Assembly (NCBI GenBank): GCA_963843795.1
Contig: CAWJLW010000006.1
Coordinates: forward strand, 62,001-126,000
Length of the DNA: 64,000 nucleotides
Direction: 5' to 3'
From: an uncultured bacterium
GTDB lineage: Bacteria > Armatimonadota > Abditibacteriia > Abditibacteriales > Abditibacteriaceae
The notes under the pieces are model-generated. The model was not told where the DNA came from. It was given only the letters and a program-made list of their open reading frames with translations, and did no database searches. Position numbers and translations under genes: made by a program. Shown one piece after another: positions 6,147 through 21,071 of the stretch (position 1 is the first letter of the stretch; each line of letters opens with the position of its first letter).

Positions 6147-8358
<2,212 letters not shown>

Positions 8359-8507
8359 GGAATATTAGCCCGCCCTTGACACGAAAACAGACACACAAGA
8401 AGCGGCTTGATCCATAAGCGCTCGCCGATTCGTTCCAAGAGGAACTGCATTCGATCCAGCATAAATTTTTGTCCTTTTCTGTTGTCTGTTTGTAGAGACA
8501 GACTCCA

Positions 8508-8700
8508 CTAGTGTCCTAACTTGGTAGTAACCTTGGGTAGAGTGGTTTGAGTTTGCAGCGGGCATCCTGCACACCACAGTGCCATTCGACTTGAACCTTT
8601 GCCGCCTTGCATTGGTTTTGCCACTCTGCGACTTGCCCTTCCAATTTTTGCTGAGATTCCGTACGCTCCTTGAGAGATTGACGCGCCAGCATGAAGTTGC
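8508..8700 (-). mobile_element. IS630-family 3' remnant fused to the truncated IS3 orfB
   Basis: ARQSL..R......L...V.EW......V.W....DAR.KL..LYP resembles the IS630 C-terminus; ends at GGACACTAG. Confidence 0.6.
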
Positions 8701-8730
8701 TTCGATAACGCGGACAGGTTAGCTTAGGCT

Positions 8731-9854
8731 TCCTGTTATAGACCACTTCGATGTAGTCGAACAACATCGTTCTGGCTTGGGCTCTCGTGGCGGGAATGAG
8801 GTCGCCAAAGCATTCGGTCTTAAGCGTGGCCTCTGCCTGGGGGGCACCCGGATATTCCATCATGGCGTTGTCGTAACAGTTGCCACGTCGGCTCATGCTC
8901 TGCTGGGCGCCCTGCTGAGCCAGGAGCCTCTGACACACTCGACTCGCATACTGACTTCCGCGATCCGAATGGTAGACCAAACCGCTGGTAGGCCGTCGAT
9001 TCTCGAAAGCACGTCGGGCCGCACTCAGCACCACTTCGCTTTCCAGACTCGCTGAAGTCTGCCAGCCCACCAGACGGCGGCTGTAACAGTCGAGCGTGCC
9101 CGCCAGATAAAGCCAGCCTTCACGCGTCGCAATGTAAGTGATGTCGCTGACCCACTGCAGATTGACCGTTTTGGGTGCTGGTTTGTCTCGCAATAAGTTG
9201 GGTGCGACCGGCAAAGCATGCTCGCTGTTGGTAGTGCGCGGCTGACGACGCCTTTTATGCGCAGCCCTCAGTCCCTGTTCCTTCATCAAGCGGCGGACGC
9301 GGTTTTCTCCGCAGCAGATGCCTTGTTTACGCAGCGCATCCACCAGACGTGGACTGCTGTAGATCTGGCGGTTGGCTTGAAAGATCCTCTCTACCTGCGC
9401 GTCTAGCTGCCGATCCTGTTGGCGGCGCACTCACTCATTCTTGCGGAGATGATCATAGTAGCCGCTGCGTGAGACGCCCAGGATCTGGTATAGCTGCTTG
9501 ACGCTCACCGCCTCCTGCCCCGGCTCGCGACTTCTGGCATGGAGACGTTGAATCATCTCATACCTCGAACTTGACTCGTGACCAGACTGTCCTGCCCCAG
9601 ACCGTCCTCGGCGACCTGCGGCTTGTGTTTCTTCGGCTAAAGTCAATTGGCGCTTCCATTTCCGCAGATACATTACTGTGGATGCCCAGGGTGCGGGCCA
9701 GTTGCGAGGCGCTTTGTCCGCTCTCGGTCACCATACGCACCGCATCGCGTTTAAATTCGGCGCTGTATTGCTGGCGTTCGACTGTCATTTTCCTCCTCTC
9801 GTTTCTGAACAGTTTGACTCTTATCTCACTGTCCACTTTTTGAAGGGAAGTTCA
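8731..9854 (-). mobile_element. IS3-family element, degenerate and right-truncated
   Basis: IRL TGAACTTCCC...AAAGTGGACA at 9830-9854; orfA YSAEFKRDAV; orfB WVSDITY, HSDRGSQY, GNCYDNA; frameshifts and stops. Confidence 0.85.
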
Positions 9855-10161
9855 GGGGAAAGTTCAATCATCTACTCACAATTGGCATGCACTTGGGGAC
9901 AAGGTTATGGAACCAGCTGGGACATGGCCTCAGGGCAAACGCACTACAAGAGAGCCAGAGGTGTAGCAAGTATTTGTTGAAGCAGTTTTTGATCCCACGC
10001 AACGGCTTTTCGGATGGCTTTGAGTGAGAGTTTGCCTTGATTTTGGCGCAACAGATTGAGCGTAATGCGCCGCAAAAGTGCCAGATTATAAGGTGCGTGT
10101 TCACAGCGCGTTCGGCATTTGTCTTCGGCAAAAACCATCCGCCCAGATTCTATGGTTTTCG

Positions 10162-11157
10162 TCAAGGGCTGGATTCCTGCTGGGGCTGTTGATAGACCCG
10201 CTCCGGGTCGTAAGAACCACCATGAGTGACCAGTGACCAGCATAAGCGCGCCATCTTTCGAGCCACAGCACACAGTGCCGCCGTGGAAGACAGTCCCTTC
10301 TGCCGTTCCCGTTCGTAATGGGCCTTGAAAGGTGAGTTTTTGGCACGCAGTGAAGACTGTGCACACAGGAATAGCAGACGTCGTAACTCGGCATCACCTT
10401 GTTTGGTGAGTCCGTGATTGCCGCGCTTATAGCCAGACTGCTTCACCGTAATGTCCAGCCCACAGTACGCGACGAATGAGTCACTTCGAGGAAAAGAACG
10501 TCCAGCCAAACGCGAGGAGAGGGTTGCTGCTGTCACAGGGCCGATGCCTGGCACCTTTTGCAACTCGCTCACACAGGATAAAGGAACTACAACCGAAGCC
10601 GGTTCGGCAGATTGAGCTGCAGAGGAAGTCGAAAGCTTCTCGATCTCTCGCTCGAGTTGGCGTTGCTGAGTTTTGAGCGCATCAATGGCGGGTTGTAGTG
10701 CCGCGGTGGCGTGAGGTAAGGCCCGCGACTGAGCCTGGAGCTGTTGCAGTGAAAGCACCAAACCCTTGCGAGCCTTAAGAAGTTGATCGAGCCGTTCCAC
10801 CAGAGGAGATTTTATCGGATATGGCGGCAGTTCGTGGCACAAGGCATACAAGCCTAATCCAGCGCTGTCGAGACGGTCGCACTTGGCGCGGTTCTGGATG
10901 CTTTGCAAGAAGCGTTTGGCACGCCGTGGTTCAGCCAGACGAACATCTCTCTGGGCCGCACGGGCCTGTTTGACAACATCAGTGCTATAGGAGCCAGTCG
11001 GTTCCAGTGCCCAGATACAATCCGGTGCAGTGGCTTTAAGCAAACGAGAGATGCCTTGAGGTGTGTTGGCGTAGGTGCGGCTCCATAAGGGGCGACGTGT
11101 GGTGGGTTCGAGAAGTGTGCAGTGCAATGTGTCTTTACCGACATCAATACCAAGCAT
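10162..11157 (-). CDS. IS110 DEDD recombinase/transposase, apparently intact
   Basis: GIDVGK, ALEPTG, KCDRLDS (DEDD), VPGIGP, YCGL...KQSG; RBS GGAGGA before the ATG at 11157. Confidence 0.93.
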   Translation of the reverse strand: MLGIDVGKDTLHCTLLEPTTRRPLWSRTYANTPQGISRLLKATAPDCIWALEPTGSYSTDVVKQARAAQRDVRLAEPRRAKRFLQSIQNRAKCDRLDSAGLGLYALCHELPPYPIKSPLVERLDQLLKARKGLVLSLQQLQAQSRALPHATAALQPAIDALKTQQRQLEREIEKLSTSSAAQSAEPASVVVPLSCVSELQKVPGIGPVTAATLSSRLAGRSFPRSDSFVAYCGLDITVKQSGYKRGNHGLTKQGDAELRRLLFLCAQSSLRAKNSPFKAHYERERQKGLSSTAALCAVARKMARLCWSLVTHGGSYDPERVYQQPQQESSP

Positions 11158-11194
11158 GATAAATCCTCCCTGTGGCCACTCGTGGCCATTCACC

Positions 11195-11362
11195 TCCTAC
11201 ACCCTTGTGACGCATCGGCTGTTGCCAATAACGCTCTGGCTCAGCAGCATTCTTCATCGGTAGTGAGGCGCTGTGTCAGTGATCTGGGCGAGGCTGTCAC
11301 TCTGAAGAATCAAAAGCAGCAGGGGCACCCCGACTGTCCACAGTCAACCTCACCACCGACAC
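11195..11362 (-). ncRNA. Putative IS110 bridge RNA
   Basis: Folded by eye: outer stem GUCGGUGGUGAGG/CCUCACUACCGAU; internal loop with GGGGUGCCCCU and CGCCCAGA matching the target flanks; second loop with AGAAU and ACAAG matching the donor junction. Confidence 0.75.
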
Positions 11363-12435
11363 TTAAACCATACAAACGGGCACCCGAGAACCCAATGGCA
11401 CTGGTTTTCGATGCTCCAGTGCGCACGAATCGTCTCGGCTAAGTGAGGCGCATCCGCTGCCAGACTGCTCAGGTAAAACCAACGGCTTCGGCTCACCTTT
11501 CCTGCCTTTTGTCCTGCAGTCATCCGACGCACGCGGTCAACGCACACCACACTTTGCAATCCTGGCCAGTCCGACACAACTTTAGCGCTCAATCCCAACT
11601 CTTGCCAAGAGCGACTCGTGACACGGCGTTTTTCACAGCGACCGTGATTTTGCTCAACAACTGCGGCTCTCTTGAGCTCTGCTCCTTCCAGAGAATCTTC
11701 CTTGTCAAAGGCGTCTTTGATTTGGTTGTAGAGTATGCGATGATTGGCTTTGAGGCAGAACAGGTATTCGCCTTTTTGGTCATGAACGGTGCGTGCCACG
11801 TCCTTTTGGCAGTAGGCTGCATCGCCGGTCACTACAGCACCTTCCAAGTCTAAAAGCTCGAACAATGAACTCGCCAGTAGCTTTTCACCGCCTTGAGCCG
11901 GTAATCGCTCACAGCACAGGCTCAAACGCAACTCGCTGGCGAATACGCTCACCGTTGTCAATGCACACACATTGTTCTGATGCTGCCATGTTCCACGCGC
12001 GACTTTGCCATCAATACTCAAGTGGCGCAAAGCTCCAGGACTCTGCTCGTCAGGACATTGCCACTTCTGGAGCCAACCCCACAAACATTCTTCTAAAACT
12101 TCGGGTTCTAAGCGGGCAAACACACGCGTGAAAGTGTCATGGCTGGGAATACCCGAAGCTAAAACAAAGCTCATTTCACGCTGCAAAAACTCCTGACGTC
12201 GCTGTCCAAACAAGGCAAACTCGACAAAATCGTCTGCGCCACAGAGCATTGCGCACAGCGCAATGCCCAAAATGTCGCTGAGCAGGTGCTTGGTCAGTCC
12301 AGTCTGCCGACGCGGGTCAGGAACACGAGAAAAATATTCACTCCATACGTTCATCTCAAACAGTTTGACCTACCCAAAATGTAGTGCGTTTGCCCTGGGA
12401 CATGGCCTTTGCAAAAAGCCGCTTGCGTGTAGAGG

Positions 12436-12529
12436 GAACCGCTCTGGCCTTCGAACCGCTCTGGCCTTCGAACCGCTCTGGCCTTCGAACCGCTCTGGCT
12501 TTCGAACCGCTCTGGCCTTCGAATCGCTC
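12436..12529. repeat. 17-bp tandem repeat GAACCGCTCTGGCCTTC x5.5
   Basis: Five full copies (one with C>T) plus a partial copy, no spacers, directly upstream of the kinase. Confidence 0.95.
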
Positions 12530-12543
12530 GCGTGAAGGCAGGA

Positions 12544-15084
12544 ATGATCATGAACGAATCCTCCAACAACACAAACGAGCCCTCCAACAACACAAACGCC
12601 TTGCCGAATGGCGAGGCGCGGGACCTGCTGCGGAACTCGACCCTGCAACCCTCCAACTCGGTTTTCTCGCCTCAGCTCCGTGGCGAAGAAGAGCTTCTCA
12701 AGGCCAGGCAAGCCCTAGAGGTTCGGACCGAAAAACTGTTAAATTCGTTATCGCTGCTCACTGCCGCGCTTGAATCTACCGTTGATGGGATCGTCGCTTT
12801 GGACCTTTCTGGAAAGGTCATTGCCTGCAACACTAAGTTCACACTCATCTGGCAGTTTCCAGATGAAGTTGTGCAACGCCGGGACAGCCGAGAAATGATG
12901 GCCTACGCAGCGCAACAAACTGTAGACCCCGCAGCATTTCTCCAACTCATTGAGAAGCGGCAGGCTGAGCCAGAGGTCGAGTCTTTTGATGTTGTAGAGA
13001 TGAAGGATGGCCGCACTCTTGAACGGTATGGTTTTCCTCACCTGGTCAATCAGGAGTGCGTGGGATTGGTTGTTAGCTTCCGCGACATCACCGAGCGCAA
13101 GCAGGCCGGAGCGGCCTTACACCTCAGCGAGGAAAAGTATCGGCTACTGTGGGCGACGGCCGGGGACGCTTTCGTGCTTTTCGATCATGATAATGTCATC
13201 TTGGAAGCCAATGCCTCTCTGACTACGATTTTCGGCTATGCGCCGGAGGAAGTGATCGGTCGGGAACTCTCTCTGCTGCAACCGGAACGTCTGCGCGAGC
13301 AGCATCGCCGTGGGTTGCAACGCTATTTGGAAACCGGGCATCGCACACTTAACTGGCGCGCGACTGAGGCTCTGGGATTACATCGAGATGGACGTGAAAT
13401 CCCCATTGAGATCGCCTTTAACCATCTTCACCTGGAAGGGAAAGATTTGTTTGCCGGCTTTATCCGCGATATCACCGAGCGCAAACAGACAGAACAGGGG
13501 CTCGCGGTTTTTGAGGCCATTGTTGATTCCTCTCATGATGCCATTGTGAGTAAGACACTCCAGGGTATCATCACCAGTTGGAATCGGGGAGCCGAAAGAC
13601 TTTTCGGCTATTCATCTGCCGAAATCATTGGCAAGTCCGTCCTAACGCTCATTCCGCCCGACCGCGCCGCTGAAGAACCTCACATCCTTGCCAGGCAGGC
13701 ACGTGGAGAGCGAATTGATCATTTCGAAACGGTGCGCATCAGGAAGGATGGGCAACTCATTGATGTTTCCCTGACTCTCTCGCCCATCAGAGATAGGCAG
13801 GGAAACATCATCGGTGTTTCCAAGGTCGCACGCGACATCACTGCGCGCAAGCAAGCCGAACGGGAGCGCGAAGACCTCCTGGCGCGTGAGCAGAAAGCCC
13901 GCCAAGGAGCGGAAACGGCCAACCGTCTTAAAGATGAGTTTTTAGCCACCATGTCCCATGAGTTGCGCACACCATTGACCGCCATTCTGGGGTGGGCCAA
14001 CATGATCCGCAATGGCAAAGTGAGAACTGAAGATATAGAACATGGGCTTGAGGTCATTGAACGAAACGCCCAGGTCCAGACCCAGCTTGTAAATGACATC
14101 CTGGATGTTTCCAGCATCATCACTGGAAAGTTGAGGCTGAACGTGCGTCCGGTGGAGCTATTTTTAGTGATCGAGAGCGCAGTGGAGTCAGTGCTGCCTG
14201 CGGCGCAAGCCAAAGGAATTCGGCTGCAGCGCGTGTTAGATTCCGGCACCAGCGTGGTTGCAGGAGATGTCACTCGCTTGCAACAGGTCGTCTGGAATCT
14301 GCTGATGAACGCGATTAAATTTACGCCCAAAGAGGGACGGGTGCAAATTCGGTTGGAGCGTGTCAAGTCTCACATTGAGATCATTGTTGCCGATAGTGGC
14401 ATCGGCATCAACCCTGAGATTTTGCCTTACATTTTCGATCGCTTTCGACAGGCCGATCAGTCGTCTACGCGAAATTATGGAGGATTGGGACTGGGACTGG
14501 CCATTGTGCGGCACATCGTGGAAAGTCATGGAGGCACGGTTGAAGCCGATAGTCCGGGTGAAAATCAGGGAGCGATCTTCACGGTGAAGATGCCTCTGAT
14601 GGCGACGCGCTCCGATGAAGTTCTGTCTCATAAAGTCGAAAATCGCCTGAAGCCATCTGCCAGTGATCGTGATCACTTCGAATATCTCCCGAAACTGCAA
14701 TATGTCCATGTTCTGGTTGTCGATGATGAGGAAGATGCAAGACGCTTGGTAAGAACCGTTCTTGAAAGCTGTGCGGCCAGAGTGACAGTTGCTGCCAATG
14801 CCGCCGAAGCGTTATCGGCACTAAAATCTTTGCGGCCTGACGTTCTCATCAGTGACATTGGTATGCCAAATGAAGATGGTCATTCTTTGATTCGTAAAGT
14901 ACGAGCTCTGACTCCGGAGCAAGGGGGACAGACTCCTGCCGCTGCTCTAACCGCCTATGTTAGAGTGGAAGACCGCTTGCAGATACTACGCTCCGGCTTT
15001 CAAATTCACTTGCCCAAGCCAATCGAACCCGCTGAACTGGTGGCCGTTGTGGCTAATCTCGCGAACACAAAGCCCCTTGATTGA
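12544..15084 (+). CDS. Hybrid sensor histidine kinase/response regulator with 3 PAS domains
   Basis: PAS/PAC repeats (RDITERKQ), H-box MSHELRTPL, HATPase NAIKFT/DSGIG/GGLGLGL, REC VLVVDD..SDIGMP..KP. Confidence 0.95.
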   Translation: MIMNESSNNTNEPSNNTNALPNGEARDLLRNSTLQPSNSVFSPQLRGEEELLKARQALEVRTEKLLNSLSLLTAALESTVDGIVALDLSGKVIACNTKFTLIWQFPDEVVQRRDSREMMAYAAQQTVDPAAFLQLIEKRQAEPEVESFDVVEMKDGRTLERYGFPHLVNQECVGLVVSFRDITERKQAGAALHLSEEKYRLLWATAGDAFVLFDHDNVILEANASLTTIFGYAPEEVIGRELSLLQPERLREQHRRGLQRYLETGHRTLNWRATEALGLHRDGREIPIEIAFNHLHLEGKDLFAGFIRDITERKQTEQGLAVFEAIVDSSHDAIVSKTLQGIITSWNRGAERLFGYSSAEIIGKSVLTLIPPDRAAEEPHILARQARGERIDHFETVRIRKDGQLIDVSLTLSPIRDRQGNIIGVSKVARDITARKQAEREREDLLAREQKARQGAETANRLKDEFLATMSHELRTPLTAILGWANMIRNGKVRTEDIEHGLEVIERNAQVQTQLVNDILDVSSIITGKLRLNVRPVELFLVIESAVESVLPAAQAKGIRLQRVLDSGTSVVAGDVTRLQQVVWNLLMNAIKFTPKEGRVQIRLERVKSHIEIIVADSGIGINPEILPYIFDRFRQADQSSTRNYGGLGLGLAIVRHIVESHGGTVEADSPGENQGAIFTVKMPLMATRSDEVLSHKVENRLKPSASDRDHFEYLPKLQYVHVLVVDDEEDARRLVRTVLESCAARVTVAANAAEALSALKSLRPDVLISDIGMPNEDGHSLIRKVRALTPEQGGQTPAAALTAYVRVEDRLQILRSGFQIHLPKPIEPAELVAVVANLANTKPLD

Positions 15085-15369
15085 AACATGCCACGATCTT
15101 TTTCATTAGCAATTCAAGCACGCAATCCGATACTTTTCACCAACTAACTATGGCCGCTATCTTGTAACTGCAGCCGAGGTTTGTCGCCAGCATGGCATTT
15201 GCCACTACGCCTTTGACAAGTGGGAGATACAAGGGTACTTGGTCTGGCCGGATGAATGTTAGTGATGCGTTTCAGCTTAGATTTCTCAGTACAGATCGTA
15301 TCCGCAACACCTTTTTGCAACAACGCCGGATGATCTGCTACCCAAATTCATTTCACTTAGGTGTAGAGA

Positions 15370-18006
15370 CTATTTCGCTTGAAACTCCCATGTGGCGACA
15401 ACGCGGCGGCCATCGGGCCACAGGGCTTCTGCTTCAATCCAGTGGGCACCGGCCCCGCGTGGCGCAAACGAAAACTCTCGGCCCATGTGCGGCTCATGCT
15501 CGGAGGCTTCCCAAACGATTTGTGCTTGAGCCAAATCAAGTGACTTCACTTCCAATTTGGGATGCAGGATTGATCCAAGGCCAACGATTGGCGCAATTCC
15601 AATAATTTTGGCGGTTGCCGCACGCCACGGTTGTTTGGCCAGCGGGCTGCGCGCCATCAGCCATGCCAGAGTCGCCATTCCACGTGCTTGATTCACGATG
15701 ACAAATTCGGTTGAGGTGTTGAAGCTATCACCCCAGCGGTCGTAGAAAGGATAAGGATTGTCGTTGTCACCATCCAAAGGGAACGACAACAATCCCAACT
15801 CTTTCTTGTAAGGCTCAATATAGGCAAAGCCGGATTGAACTGCGCCCAATGGCAGGCCTGACGGCGGCAACTCCCGCCGGTCATTCATAGCATATTGATG
15901 CACGATTTCTCGCTGCCGCTTTGTGCCAGTGCCGGTCAGAAACGAAACGTTGTTCGGGTTTGAACCGGCCTCAAAGTTGAGATTGCCGATAATGATTTCA
16001 ACCCACTGCGAATCGGGTTTGATTTGGGCCGCCACTGCGATGTCGAAGGCTTCCGACATCGGGAAGTACCAACCGGCGACGCGAAAACGCTTACTTTCCA
16101 GTGGGAAACTGTGTTGATACGCATTGTCAAGCGCGTATTTTGCTTCGTCTTGTCCGCCTAAAAGTACTTGCTCTTCACACTTGCGCAAATGAAAGGCATC
16201 AAGCTTTTCTTTAGTGAGACGCCCGCTGCGTGCAGCAAAAGCGTAACTGCGAATGGCACAGCCATAACCTTCGAACAAGCGTTGCCAGCCCCAGCGCAAG
16301 GTTTCAGGACTGGCGGGATCAAAGTACTTGAGAACCTCTTGATGGGCCGCATCATCGCCAGTTGCGAGGAAGATTTCCGTCGCTGCCCAGGCCAATTCGT
16401 CATCGTGCATGAAGGTGTCGCCGTAGTGCGTGATCTTTTGATAAGCACCATCGCGGCCATGCTCAGCCAATGCGCGCTGTAAAAAAGACCAACCTTTACG
16501 CGCCTTTTCGAGGTAGGATGCCGCCTCAATAGGGAACTGCTTGCGGAACTGCGGTGAGGAAGCAGCTTGTGCCAGAGCCGCCGTTGCAGCGGCAGTGGCT
16601 GAGGTGGTTTTGGGGAAAACGATCTGCGGATCGCCTTGATCCGGTAGCACATTGTTCTCATACTCGCGTTCGCGCGGATAAACCAGAAAGTAAAATCCGC
16701 CATCGTCATCCTGCATCTTGGCCAGAAAGTCTGCTTCCCATTTCGCGATCTGCAAGATGTCGCTTTGGCCATCACCGCTTTCGGGCAAACCGAGATTATC
16801 TAACGCCGCCACACCCGCAAAAGAGTCGGCGGCGAAAATGAGGTGATGAATCAGCTGCGCGCTATTGATGGTGTATTTGCTGTAATCTCCAGCATCGTGG
16901 TGGCCACCGCTGACACTCACCTTGCCTTGATGCACAAACGGATATAGGCTCGACGCGGTATCTTTCAATTGTGGTGCAGTGTGGCGTGGGTTACTTTGAA
17001 AGTTACTCGACATTTCCGCCAGTCGCGCTTGCATTTTGGTGAATGAGGCTGTGGGAACATCTGCCGCTGCCACATGACACGCTGCGTGAGTAAAGCGCGA
17101 AAATGGCAAGGCGTTTTCGGCCCCACAGCGCTGATGGTAAAGTCCTAACGCATAAGTGCGGGCAAATGCCGTCGCAACTCCATCGTTAACAGCAAAGGGA
17201 AAAGAAGTGCCTAACCCTGGCACTTGCAGACGATACTGCCCGGCTACTTTGAAATCGCTGAAATCGGCTTCCCATACCCGCTGATAAGGCTTAATGGTGT
17301 AAGTATAGCCTTGGTCACGGCGCAGTGTGAGTCGTCCGGTGAAAACTATTTTGCCGCTGGCCTCATCCAGTAGTTGGAAACTTTGCGGAGCCGGAACTAT
17401 CATCTCGCCCATACTACCCAGATAGTAGCCGATAGTGGCTTTCTTGGGCAGTGATGGAACATAACCAACCTGATTCACATGAACAGCAGGACTCCATCTC
17501 GCGGCATCTAATGACGCTGCAAAGCGCATGGTTTGGGGCCATAAAGTACTTTGCACTTCGACTGTGGCGCCATCCGCCAGTGGCTGAGCTAATTGAAGAA
17601 CAAGCGCGTTGCTAATTCGCAAATCGCGCTTGGCTAACGGCGCATATAGAACACGACGTTTAAAGCCAATGGCGGCAACATCACAAGGCTTGCCGCCCTC
17701 AAGTACTTTCAACTCCTTCAATGCAGGCAGTCCCAGATGACCTTGTTCGTCAACCCAGTTCCACAGCGCGCTGTGCCCGCCTTCTGGCTGCGTTGTGATG
17801 AGGGTGAGTTCCAGAACAGTAGGGGAAAGAATTCTCAACCAGTGTGTGCCCACTTGGGGCATTGCCAGCGGATTACTGTCTCTTGAAAATACGCTCAATC
17901 CCACGGTGACCGGTGACTTGGTGACCCGTGACGCTGCAACCGGTAAAGCAGATGCTACGCCAAACACCAGAAAAATGATGCAAGATACAGAAGGCGTGTG
18001 TTTCAT
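15370..18006 (-). CDS. Glycoside hydrolase family 9 protein with CelD-type Ig domain, secreted
   Basis: Signal peptide, HVNQVGY.P...K.A, YHQRCG, GGHHDAGDYSKY. Confidence 0.85.
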   Translation of the reverse strand: MKHTPSVSCIIFLVFGVASALPVAASRVTKSPVTVGLSVFSRDSNPLAMPQVGTHWLRILSPTVLELTLITTQPEGGHSALWNWVDEQGHLGLPALKELKVLEGGKPCDVAAIGFKRRVLYAPLAKRDLRISNALVLQLAQPLADGATVEVQSTLWPQTMRFAASLDAARWSPAVHVNQVGYVPSLPKKATIGYYLGSMGEMIVPAPQSFQLLDEASGKIVFTGRLTLRRDQGYTYTIKPYQRVWEADFSDFKVAGQYRLQVPGLGTSFPFAVNDGVATAFARTYALGLYHQRCGAENALPFSRFTHAACHVAAADVPTASFTKMQARLAEMSSNFQSNPRHTAPQLKDTASSLYPFVHQGKVSVSGGHHDAGDYSKYTINSAQLIHHLIFAADSFAGVAALDNLGLPESGDGQSDILQIAKWEADFLAKMQDDDGGFYFLVYPREREYENNVLPDQGDPQIVFPKTTSATAAATAALAQAASSPQFRKQFPIEAASYLEKARKGWSFLQRALAEHGRDGAYQKITHYGDTFMHDDELAWAATEIFLATGDDAAHQEVLKYFDPASPETLRWGWQRLFEGYGCAIRSYAFAARSGRLTKEKLDAFHLRKCEEQVLLGGQDEAKYALDNAYQHSFPLESKRFRVAGWYFPMSEAFDIAVAAQIKPDSQWVEIIIGNLNFEAGSNPNNVSFLTGTGTKRQREIVHQYAMNDRRELPPSGLPLGAVQSGFAYIEPYKKELGLLSFPLDGDNDNPYPFYDRWGDSFNTSTEFVIVNQARGMATLAWLMARSPLAKQPWRAATAKIIGIAPIVGLGSILHPKLEVKSLDLAQAQIVWEASEHEPHMGREFSFAPRGAGAHWIEAEALWPDGRRVVATWEFQAK

Positions 18007-18292
18007 GGGAAGCCTCACACAAAGGAATGACGAAAGTATATGATTACGTTCAGCGTCAAGCCTCTGACTGACGCTGGCAGCGATTGTGAGAGAAGAACGT
18101 GATTTGTTTCAGGTAATCACTGGCTCGGGATCACAGAACGTCCCGAGAAAATTGATCATCTCGGGAGTACCTACGTGGGCTTGTCCCTGTTTGGTAGTGG
18201 GTAAGTTAAGCGTCAAATTTCAAGATTGTTCAAAGTTTACGTGACTTTGATACCTCAGGGCAGAATGCCGCCGCTGGCGATTGTAGTAACTT

Positions 18293-19611
18293 TGGAACTC
18301 ACCCGCAAAAGTGGACAGTTGAAAAAGAGAAACTGGAATCACAGGAGCCATTATGGGAGTTCAACACAAACCAAGCAAACGCAAACAACCCAGCAGCGAG
18401 TTCAAACGGGAGGCAGTCCGGCTGGTGACTGCAGGCGGTCTGAGCATCGCCCAGGCCGCACGCGGTCTCGGTCTGGACGACAACATCCGCCCATTGGGCA
18501 CCCAGCCACTGGAAGAAAGAAGCCCAGCAAAACGGCCAGAACGCTTTTCCCGGTCAAGGGCATCCCCAAGATGAAGAACTGTCTCGGCTACGGCGCGAGA
18601 ATGAAGTGCTTCGCCAAGAAAGGGAGATCCTAAAAAAAGCCATCAGCATCTTCTCGCAGCCGGGCCGGTAACCAAGGAGATGCGTTATCTGTTTATCCAG
18701 CAGCATCAAGGTCAGTTTCAGATGACTGTGCTGCTGCGCGTGGCAGGCGTAACTGGCAGTGCCTTTTATCAATGGCAAAAGCGGCCAATGAGCCAGCGTG
18801 CCCAGCACAAGAAGGAGTTGGTCACCCATATCCGTGCCCTTTTTCAGGAGAACAAAGGGCGCTATGGCAGCTCCCGCATCCATCGCGATTTGCAAGCGCA
18901 GGGAATCAAGTGCAGTCAAAAGCGTGTGGCTCAAATGATGAAGGAACACAATCTGGTGGTGCGCAGGGCTCGCCGGTTTGTGGCAACCACCGATTCTGGC
19001 CATGCTTTTCCCATTGCCCAGAACCTTCTGAACCGTGAGTATCAGGTCAAAGCAGTGGCAGGACTGAACCGAGCTTGAGATGGTGACATCACTTACGTTC
19101 CTACAGATCAGGGTTGGTTATATGTGCCGGTGATTCTGGACTTGAAAAACCGCAAGGTCATCGGGTGGAGCATGAGAGACAGCCTGGAACAGACGCTGGT
19201 GCATGAAGCGTTGAAGATGGCTTTGGGACAGCGGACATCACCAGAGCGGTGCCCAACGACGTTGCTTTTTCACAGTGACCGGAGCAGCCAATACGCGGCT
19301 CATGACTATCGGGAGCGGCTTCAGAAGTTTGGCATCGTGTGCAGCATGAGCCGCAGGGGCGGATACCGTTGGCGGATTGGGACAACGCGGTAGTCGAAAG
19401 CTTCTTCGCCACCCTCAAAAAAGAGGAGGTGCATCGGGAAAACCATCTGACTCAGGAACAGGCCAAAGCCAGCCTGTTCTGTTACATCGAAATCTTCTAC
19501 AATCGAAAGCGCAGACATTCACGGGCGCCCTTCGGGCAGGGGCTACATCAGCCCACACGAATACGAAAAAGCCATGCTTAACTAATTGTCCACATTTCAG
19601 GGGGAACTCCA
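18293..19611 (+). mobile_element. IS3-family element, full-length but inactivated
   Basis: IRs TGGAACTCACCCGCAAAAGTGGACA / TGTCCACATTTCAGGGGGAACTCCA; EFKREAV orfA, A-run near 18631, orfB with TGA at 19076 and three hairpin insertions. Confidence 0.9.
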
Positions 19612-19658
19612 CAATCATCCACAGCAGGCTTACGGCACTATTCGTAAAGAGGGGGAAG

Positions 19659-20575
19659 ATGAACAAAGCCAATGGATCTACTCAAATCATCACCATCGCG
19701 CACGACCGCATTCGCCCCGATCCCAACCAGCCGCGCCAGCACTTCGACCAGGCCGAGATCGCCGAACTGCGCCAAAGCATCCGCGAACACGGCTTGTTGC
19801 AACCGCTTCTGGTGCGCCACGAACCGTCGCGTTTCGATGGCTCTCCTTATCTAGTGGTGGCCGGCGAACGGCGCTGGCACGCCTGCGCGGGTGTGCTCGA
19901 TGACATTCCCTGCATCGTGCGCGATGCCACGCCCGAACAAGCCCAAGAACTCGCGCTCGTCGAAAACATCCAGCGCGCCAACCTGACGCCGATCGAAGAA
20001 GCGCGCGGTATCGCCAGCCTGATGGAAGCAAACGGACTGTCTCAAAACGCGACCGCCAAACGTCTGCACAAGCACGTCAACTGGGTGCGCAACCGTCTGG
20101 CCCTGCTCAAGATCGCCGCCGATGCTCAGGAAGTCGCCGCCGTCGCACCCGATAAGATGACCGCCCTGGTCGAGATCGATACCATTCGCGACGACAACGC
20201 GCTGCGCGGTGAACTGTTGGAGATGGCCGCCCGTGGCACCTCGCACAGCGCGATCATGGAGCGCATTGACGCCCACCGCGAAAAGCAACGCCCCGAAGCC
20301 GAATCGCGCCGCGCGCCCGACGAGCAAACCCAGCAACGCACAAACGAACAGGCGCGCAGCGGCAGCGGGCAGATGTCGCGCGGGCGCATGGTGACCGGCA
20401 CGCCCCACGACTAAGCGCGCCGGGAAATCGAAACCGCTCTGGCCGAATTGGAACGCCACGCCAAAACCCTCGCCGCTGGACGCCCAAAGCCGAGCGCAAG
20501 TACTTGCAGGAGCGCATCGAACCGCGCCTGACCAAACTGCGCCGCGATCTGATGAACGCTGGGCGTGGCGAGTAG
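19659..20575 (+). pseudogene. ParB/Spo0J-family protein with premature TAA (20412) and later frameshift
   Basis: PDPNQPR.HF, GLLQP, AGERRW, ALVENIQRANLTPIEEA, HTH; reading continues past the stop (ARREIETALAELERH). Confidence 0.75.
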
Positions 20576-20583
20576 GGCATAGC

Positions 20584-20625
20584 GAGATATATATGAGATG
20601 TATATGAGATGTATATGAGATGTAT
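20584..20625. repeat. 11-bp tandem repeat (TATATGAGATG) ~3.5 copies
   Basis: Directly visible; AT-rich, between the parB relic and the att site. Confidence 0.85.
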
Positions 20626-20824
20626 TTGGACGCCGGGCCTGAGAATGAAGGCGATCAAATGAAAACTACTGGATTTGATTGAAACTATGATTTCTTGAAC
20701 CTGACTATATTGACACTTTTCCGCGATGCTATGCGCGAAATAGGTCAACACACTTCTGAAAAAAGGGCTGATAAAAGCGGACGAATCCCTCGTAAAGTGA
20801 AGCGGGCGTGGAAGTTTTTCAATT

Positions 20825-20871
20825 TCACACTGATAATGTGGAGGTCCCTGGTTCGAGCCCAGGTGAGCGCA
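20825..20871 (+). other. 3' half of tRNA-Ile(GAT); putative att site at the island boundary
   Basis: Anticodon arm TCACA-CTGATAA-TGTGG, AGGTC, T-arm CCTGG-TTCGAGC-CCAGG and acceptor 3' strand; no 5' half or D-arm upstream. Confidence 0.8.
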
Positions 20872-20875
20872 GACG

Positions 20876-20909
20876 AAAAGCCGCGCCTTCAATTGAAGGC
20901 ACGGCTTTT
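20876..20909. terminator. Intrinsic terminator after the tRNA fragment
   Basis: AAAAGCCGCGCCTTCAATTGAAGGCACGGCTTTT. Confidence 0.8.
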
Positions 20910-21071
20910 GAGTTTTATCTGGAAACAATTATGCCAACGGAATTACGCGAAAGAATTTGTCTGCGATTTACACGCGCGTTACCGTTAAAGCTACAAGCTG
21001 TAGGAATTGTGGCCTGATTGAAATGGCCTTCGCTGTCGAACGCGCACACATTTTTCTCCTATGCGTTTTCG

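Follow-up and report, generated by a model that had tools for sequence, protein, structure and literature searches.

A short hairpin repeat that replaces a few bases in insertion sequences of an Abditibacteriaceae bacterium, and its occurrence in other genomes

We analysed a stretch of 64,000 nt (the window) from an uncultured bacterium of the Abditibacteriaceae, phylum Armatimonadota (GenBank assembly GCA_963843795.1, contig CAWJLW010000006.1, positions 62,001 to 126,000). Two IS3-family elements and one ISAs1-family transposase gene, the latter also split by an IS110-family element, carry five short GC-rich hairpins, which an earlier note had described from the sequence as related segments written over conserved transposase codons. 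All five are present and belong to one unit of 18–20 nt, CGGGYRCCC-N3-GGGYRG(N), which we call the stamp. In what follows, G000 is the source genome and other G numbers are comparison genomes, L numbers are individual loci and C numbers are contigs of G000.

IS3-family element a (8516..9852, minus strand; orfA 9558-9836, orfB 8516-9430) has a left inverted repeat near 9830-9855, and its right end is not fixed. It carries stamp 1 (8831..8854, core 8833-8850, minus strand) at the DNAMME-SF(W) motif of orfB; the left edge of this stamp could not be placed in the alignment with the empty homologues (L310, L333). IS3-family element b (18293..19610, plus strand) is decayed and carries stamps 2 to 4. 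Stamp 2 (18485..18503, minus strand) lies in orfA, antisense to the gene, where 19 nt stand for about 6 nt. Stamp 3 (19361..19376, plus strand) is a degenerate 16-nt copy that replaces 5 nt in SRRG-NC-WDN of orfB, and stamp 4 (19522..19539, plus strand) puts 18 nt in place of 5 nt at RHS-xL-GY of the same frame. Stamp 5 interrupts the ISAs1-family transposase gene (5' part 11387..12327, minus strand; the gene resumes below 10137) at HWVL-D. Its left half (10 nt, 11377..11386) and right half (7 nt, 10138..10144), both on the minus strand, make together with the core of the IS110 element a 19-nt unit in place of 5 nt. Compared with empty homologues, the net gains at sites 1 to 5 are +15, +13, +11, +13 and +14. 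Stamp 1 is therefore in frame and the other four shift the frame, in agreement with the description of the copies as mostly out of frame.

With the 17-nt pattern GGGYRCCC-N3-GGGYRG and up to one mismatch, the window gave 3 matches against 0.26 expected, and 0 of 100 shuffles reached 3. No match lay in window 21001-64000, in line with the earlier statement that none was seen in the 43 kb of host genes. In the whole of G000 the strict pattern matched four times, each time inside insertion sequence (IS) regions, which make up 0.95% of the genome; the Markov expectation was 0.45 over all of G000 and 0.004 within the IS regions, so that the enrichment in ISs that had been proposed as a check was found. 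Allowing one mismatch gave 12 matches, 5 of them inside IS regions. Because the pattern was derived from the observed copies, only the two copies outside the window (C6:38472 and C9:35875) are independent, and the variant at C9:35875 entered the pattern only after it had been seen. The stamp at C6:38472 occupies the same RHS codons as stamp 4, in a distant IS407-like element. Every recognised stamp of G000 is located in an IS element. An Rfam scan of window 8000-21000 gave 0 matches.

The alignment of the ISs to unstamped homologues, also suggested in the earlier note, defined the replaced bases, for sites 3 and 5 with public soil contigs from 4 runs of 1 study (X1, X2 and X4 among them; contigs only). 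A contig of X4 links 10137 to 11387 via 5 other letters, and the X2 allele is similar. Hence 5 nt were replaced by the 19-nt stamp, and the IS110 element inserted into the stamp afterwards. Record 7 of X1 has 11 nt fewer at site 3 and represents the empty allele, and record 8, an independent public contig, contains stamp 4 with 0 gaps. Empty and filled forms also coexist within single repeat families of related genomes: 6 of 54 copies are filled in G018 and 10 of 77 in G007. A repeat of 25 nt when empty measures 39 nt when filled in G015 and G019, with both orientations within G019, and a G016 repeat measures 29 nt empty versus 43 nt filled. In a systematic search, an empty counterpart was found for 29 of 328 anchor types, with several rows from one host family. 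Seven of the 29 pairs were dropped (4 tandem-unit rows, 3 with diverged flanks), and the 22 clean pairs lose 4–6 nt (7, 13 and 2 rows) for a net gain of +13 to +16, with 18–20 nt gained in 21 of them. No empty/filled comparison showed a target duplication. Thus the absence of duplication claimed earlier stands, and the claimed replacement of 3–9 nt narrows to typically 4–6 nt. That bases are replaced and not duplicated speaks for a strand swap or a templated patch rather than for cut-and-paste. Stamp copies also nest in tandem.

The unit consists of a 5' foot, CGGG(Y), a G/C stem of 4–5 bp, a pyrimidine-rich 3-nt loop and 1–2 subfamily-specific end bases. Identical end-base subfamilies occur in unrelated hosts. 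The loop is TTT or TCT in 103 of 127 flank types; an origin of the loop from a circle junction was ruled out on this ground, as the loops are not variable host bases. Ribosomal bypassing was likewise ruled out: a 15-nt hop leaves the net gains of +13 and +14 unrestored, and most copies are non-coding. The folding energies of the two strands as DNA differ by at most 0.4 kcal/mol and carry no information on strand preference; the computed stability of the hairpin is higher as RNA than as DNA. In G017 we found a variant with a 10-nt loop and an extended stem. In a G016 family resembling repetitive extragenic palindromes (REPs), an adjacent position is occupied by other short hairpin modules in place of a few bases, one of them closely like the stamp but with a purine loop. 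These modules and the 10-nt-loop variant suggest a wider set of micro-inserts.

The pattern was matched in 23 of 27 genomes of the family, with up to 274 copies, against 0–2 matches of a reversed-pattern control. A stricter pattern was found in 15 of 23 family genomes versus 4 of the 227 other genomes of the phylum. In GTDB contigs at least 122 loci were matched, with titles that include Abditibacteriaceae, Chloroflexota, Acidobacteriota, Opitutales, Gemmatimonadota and Poribacteria, and also Verrucomicrobiota; no cyanobacterium was named in 80 titles among the matches listed. Among 33 genomes picked for having a match, 11 hold 52–128 copies, and all 11 are labelled Chloroflexota. A near-complete one-contig genome contains 41 copies. 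G270 and G274, both among the 11 Chloroflexota, as well as G275 and G283 are unpublished, and on unpublished genomes rest an IS630 match (L224), an IS256 match (L247), one pair row (L266), one dropped row (L239) and one IS110 locus (L538). Motif matches in AlaRS, NUDIX and PriA frames (L254, L232 and L188) were left uncounted and may be chance in GC-rich DNA.

The hosts of the stamp are REP-like and SRM-type hairpins, short tandem repeats, attC sites, tRNA genes in tRNA arrays, in-frame Calx-beta repeats and transposase genes, the last of IS3, ISAs1, IS200, IS110, IS5, IS630 and Tn3 types by Pfam and of IS1 and IS256 by eye. The view of the stamp as a feature of transposases, taken from the window, was therefore too narrow. 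A filter for non-repeat flanks retained 101 of 358 distinct sites, and many of these 101 still look like repeats by eye. The stamp sits almost only in multi-copy or dispensable DNA, and stamped repeats were later amplified along with the host repeat. In two family genomes (L203 245-350; L438 303-380), stamps lie antisense near the junction of the tRNA D-arm and anticodon stem, in dense tRNA arrays. Several broken IS200 tnpA copies of relatives (L518-L527) show, in place of stamps, short tandem duplications of 10–20 nt, with up to about 8 copies in L527.

This host range bears on the suggestion that a host defence or editing process stamps conserved transposase codons to inactivate them. The restriction of the recognised G000 copies to ISs, the frameshifts at four of five window sites and the marking of several transposase families at conserved motifs agree with it. 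However, in relatives most copies lie in non-coding repeats, and tRNA arrays, attC sites and in-frame Calx-beta repeats are stamped too, while stamp 1 keeps the frame. Only 10 of 39 IS3 loci are stamped (10 of 30, three of them G000's own, and 0 of 9 in a further set), the IS-rich G021 has 0 stamps, and the stamp creates a landing target for another IS (see below). We therefore regard a defence role as very unlikely. For chance matches or an assembly artefact we see practically no probability left, and for the stamp family as a whole this explanation is refuted. It could draw on sites 1 and 3, which are off consensus with partly shortened base runs and may contain sequencing errors, and on the use of contig data only. 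Against it stand the window and G000 statistics, the near-empty reversed-pattern controls, stamp 4 in an independent contig, the 41 copies in the one-contig genome and an IS110 guide that covaries with its site, as described below.

Within transposase genes, stamps recur at homologous positions. The RHS site was stamped four times (twice in G000, and in G014 and G023), the HSD.GS site twice (G001, G023), the SQR site twice (G001, G017), the SRKG site in G000 and G018 and, doubtfully, the ESF site twice. With a pattern open to both orientations, two further metagenome IS3s were found stamped at SRKG, both in sense direction; of the four metagenome matches, the other two are chance. HWVL-D of ISAs1 was stamped in G000 and G005, whose proteins are 40% identical. 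In the family, 17 events gave 10 coincident pairs, which corresponds to P = 1e-5, 9e-4 or 0.023 for 250, 60 or 30 possible places. Orientation was constant at every recurring site. Thus any one homologous site is always stamped at the same position and in the same direction. A shared target motif, which the earlier note expected to be worth seeking, did not appear across 127 flank types. The simplest explanation for repeated stamping of conserved positions that have no motif in common is that each new insertion is guided by the flanks of a site already occupied.

The fixed orientation is also compatible with RNA-templated writing, in which the transcript of a stamped site, or a small RNA with the hairpin flanked by two pairing arms, would be copied at a nick by a reverse transcriptase or a repair polymerase, followed by removal of the flap of 4–6 nt that is displaced. 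Such a process would explain the lack of duplication, the fixed orientation and the multi-copy targets equally well; the greater stability of the hairpin as RNA and the sense orientation of 17 of 22 transposase sites (p = 0.017) fit it. An RNA-mediated route is said to have once been proposed for the small dispersed repeats (SDRs) of cyanobacteria. The sense bias is, however, gone when Calx-beta and tRNA sites are included (17 of 27, p = 0.25), the single reverse transcriptase of G000 looks retron-like by eye with no stamp in the 2 kb viewed, and a guide array was not seen among the listed positions. We consider RNA templating unlikely.

The IS110-family element at site 5 (10145..11376, minus strand) has its body at 10147-11374, core dinucleotides at 10145-10146 and 11375-11376, short subterminal inverted repeats and a transposase open reading frame (ORF) at 10162-11193. 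The element combines a transposase with PF01548 and PF02371, a non-coding end and a short core at both junctions, as in bridge-RNA-type elements. From position and covariation, with the layout taken from IS621 (PMC11208160), the left end is predicted to encode a bridge RNA (11195..11374, minus strand). Its putative target guides (11322-11331 and 11283-11290) match the stamp, and its putative donor guides (11247-11255 and 11204-11210, minus strand) match the element's own ends. When four non-coding left ends were aligned, two variable segments stood inside a conserved frame. In the window element and in those of G016 and G014, the segments match the stamp; in G003 they match the plain repeat where the G003 element sits. 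The target guides thus covary with the insertion site across the four elements. The left guide of the G016 element matches the stamp at 11 of 11 nt. In the window element the crossover lies 2 nt further along the loop, with a matching shift of the right guide. In G016, all 10 copies of a relative with 61% identity sit in stamp variants, in four host contexts, and identical copies differ in their right flanks, of which there are three (6, 3 and 1 of 10). It follows that the stamp is a pre-existing target and not the end of the IS110. We conclude that this IS110 lineage is aimed at the stamp and that the element at site 5 is a passenger.

The reverse relation, that a stamp-targeting IS110 writes its own landing pads or that stamps are IS110 ends left after excision, is already largely refuted and highly implausible. 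The length of the stamp is near the target footprint of a bridge RNA, and the perfect G016 left guide would suit such an origin. The three right flanks of identical copies contradict it, as do the 2-nt shift of the window crossover with its adapted right guide, the sister elements with other guides in plain, stampless repeats, and the stamp's reach of about 3 nt past the G016 guide; IS110 excision is moreover described as scarless (PMC11208160), and no such element was found in the stamp-rich Chloroflexota. One query did not find the IS110 clade in stamp-rich G007, G008, G009, G011 and G019 (three of them fragmented), and the clade was seen in a stamp in 0 of the 33 other stamp-bearing genomes, where two relatives sit in plain repeats (L538 with the right end only). 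In viral contigs no IS110 relative was confirmed. Other IS110 clades of the family are mostly in attC-like sites, at positions that differ from those of the attC stamps.

Further IS110 remnants and junctions were observed. A contig of X1 joins the IS110 right end (10144) to the right half of stamp 3 (19371), with a side of 36 nt and a depth of 6; this junction, seen in one contig of 85% likeness, is what either a second insertion or an inversion between the two stamps would produce in a related strain. At about 38560-38640 of C6, the remnant of a second stamp-targeting IS110, about 60 nt of its truncated left end, is still joined to a stamp left half; it lies close to the ESF codons of an IS407-like orfB, in antisense direction. 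On C4 (46400-50400 and 79500-82000), two other IS110s are found in attC-like sites, which suggests an integron-like cassette array.

The earlier note had also considered excision scars. For the adjacent IS110 this is unlikely, given its entry into pre-existing stamp variants; the surviving form of the idea is that a larger retargetable element (a guide-RNA recombinase or a group II-like intron) entered conserved multi-copy sites, deleted about 5 nt, later lost its body and left its two ends. REPs, attC sites and conserved IS3 codons are typical targets of guided elements, and ISEc21 targets the codons around the second D of IS3 transposases (PMC11187229), the region that contains the HSD.GS site. 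However, 52 left-half matches without a normal right half in five stamp-rich genomes revealed no recurring other cargo, with a pattern that misses about a quarter of cases, and no cargo other than the IS110 was seen anywhere. A separate guide would be needed for each of more than 100 flank types, and the 10-nt-loop variant lengthens the stem, as a folded unit should. Taken together, a scar origin is quite improbable.

On the other hand, the coexistence of empty and filled alleles, the two orientations within one family, the tandem nesting and the occurrence in several phyla favour the ultra-short mobile element that the earlier note had put forward, and in our judgement the stamp is very probably an independent mobile micro-repeat. 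That it is, more specifically, an SDR-like, ultra-small mobile hairpin repeat spread by flank-guided single-strand overwriting is a proposition we hold in even balance. The 5' foot and hairpin resemble substrates of Y1-HUH enzymes (PMC6006769) and many host repeats belong to the type that Ssn nucleases cleave in single-stranded form (PMC11893778), and a route through single-stranded DNA is favoured on these grounds. In such a scheme, a hairpin-binding single-strand nuclease or strand-transferase acting in trans (Y1-HUH/RAYT-like or Ssn-like) would free the hairpin strand from an occupied site. The freed strand would pair with a related site through about 5–8 nt of similarity per side, and the 4–6 nt between would be replaced. 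New kinds of site would arise rarely, through chance microhomology. Frameshifting copies in needed genes would be purged, so that IS genes, repeats, spare tRNAs and in-frame cases would remain. The single-strand "micro-homing" enzymology itself is a tentative proposal, somewhat short of probable. With similar reserve we propose a previously undescribed oligonucleotide-scale "overwrite" pathway, in which a hairpin of less than 20 nt may be copied between loosely related sites, guided by a few bases of similarity per side, with about 5 nt replaced and none duplicated. The hairpin would have settled in most kinds of repeated DNA across phyla and grown common enough for an RNA-guided IS110 to evolve its use as a portable landing pad in two registers.

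Several observations weigh against this flank-guided single-strand route. A mobilising gene was not found: stamps flank 0 of 30 Y1 loci (30 of about 146 listed matches) and 0 of 30 GIY-YIG loci. Y1 counts are uncoupled from stamps (31 Y1 matches and 0 stamps in G021; 1 weak Y1 match and 76 stamps in G019), and the one Y1 gene in G000 is broken and accompanied by a GTAG REP of its own. Compared with canonical REPs, the stamp has a shorter stem and lacks a GTAG foot, and we know of no description of HUH strand transfer that gives a replacement of 4–6 nt. The site tally was made by eye, and its ESF pair (1 of 10) is doubtful. At one shared site the stamp subtype sometimes differs (RHS, HSD), and co-conversion of flanks is not visible at the SRKG site. 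Finally, the left guide of the window IS110 fits its target only with a 1-nt bulge.

In 20 intervals between stamp pairs we saw ordinary host genes, judged by eye from ORF starts, and the sole stamps at Y1 genes lie inside two tnpA genes. On C6 of G000, a RAYT-like Y1 gene (751650-752450) with an internal stop has its own GTAG REP doublets on both sides, and a 522-aa reverse transcriptase ORF (796300-797900) is retron-like by eye. Neither of these genes, whose kinds the earlier note had suggested looking for, shows a stamp nearby.

As for the surroundings of the stamped ISs, a perfect 12-nt palindrome with 2,567 copies in G000, resembling HIP1 or an uptake sequence, occurs once in window 1-21000 versus 33 times in 21001-64000. 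This near absence indicates that the stamped ISs lie in an acquired island, and they may have been stamped in an earlier host. At the island edge, near an ORF with a ParB domain (19377-20414), a tRNA-like 3' fragment was recognised by eye (20815-20875) and is possibly an attachment site; ARAGORN called no tRNA in the window. Short tandem repeats were seen close to the ISAs1 end, to where a PAS histidine kinase gene starts and to the edge of the island (12436-12529, 17 nt x5.5; 12553-12598, 21 nt x2.2; 20584-20625, 11 nt x3.8).

The movement of elements shorter than 30 nt has been an open question since the SDRs, and with the stamp family it can be put to the test: unit, end bases, number of bases lost, recurrent sites and matched empty alleles are all defined, and there are both stamp-rich and stamp-free sister genomes in which to look for the genes involved. 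Short-homology overwriting, if true, would be a new recombination chemistry with a possible use in precise editing. The system also presents layered parasitism, of a repeat or IS, then the stamp, then the IS110. Accordingly, not all frameshifted transposases and odd peptide inserts of metagenome assemblies are errors; some are real events.

Among known systems, the likeness to SDRs (Elhai et al. 2008, Genome Res 18:1484) is that stamps are oligonucleotide-sized, structured, dispersed and apparently mobile, with empty and filled alleles. SDRs are reportedly 21–27 nt long and found inside other repeats and nested; the stamps, embedded in repeats and mobile elements and nested, would share the latter trait. 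They differ from SDRs in their 18–20 nt, in overwriting about 5 nt, in recurring at conserved transposase codons and in serving as an IS110 target. SDR1-8 belong to Nostocaceae, and SDR5 enters a repeated motif at a precise position (PMC4390886, PMC5861425, PMC3116915). In the same sources SDRs were not found outside Nostocaceae among HIP1-rich cyanobacteria, whereas stamps span several phyla. Because neither the reported size range nor the host range fits, and with SDRs compared by description only, we do not class the stamp as an SDR.

The stamp shares with REP/RAYT and SRM/Ssn systems a short GC hairpin with a 5' foot, high copy number, the role of IS110 target and some intragenic copies (PMC6006769, PMC3733652, PMC3116915, PMC11893778). 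REPs are defined by a GTAG/GTGG (or CGTC) tetranucleotide 0–2 nt before a stem of 7–20 bp (PMC6006769), whereas the stamp has no such tag and a stem of 4–5 bp. Unlike REP and SRM repeats, stamps lie within such repeats, replace target bases and flank no Y1 or GIY-YIG gene. Miniature inverted-repeat transposable elements measure 70–300 bp, with terminal inverted repeats of 15–30 bp and target duplication (PMC3733652); the stamp, at 18–20 nt and without duplication, does not fit this description. Yeast mitochondrial GC clusters such as GC42 are likewise tiny GC-rich mobile palindromes that merge and shuffle, but they are about 42 nt long with AG/ACT target duplications (PMC4478555), whereas stamps are half that length and delete target bases.

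Targeting of repeats or conserved IS codons by IS110 elements is known from IS621 (PMC11208160), ISEc21 (PMC11187229) and ISPpu10 (10.64898/2026.03.19.712850). The element at site 5 resembles these in its DEDD and SG domains, upstream non-coding end, CT core and predicted target and donor guides, and ISPpu10, too, has a target with a stem-loop. It differs from these in that its target is a mobile micro-repeat in many unrelated contexts, used by two relatives in registers 2 nt apart. The literature searched, which left out most subscription papers, Elhai 2008 among them, held no account of the stamp unit. We regard the stamp as a real, smaller, cross-phylum form of a poorly understood kind of element, one that follows a defined overwrite rule and has a guided IS as its passenger.

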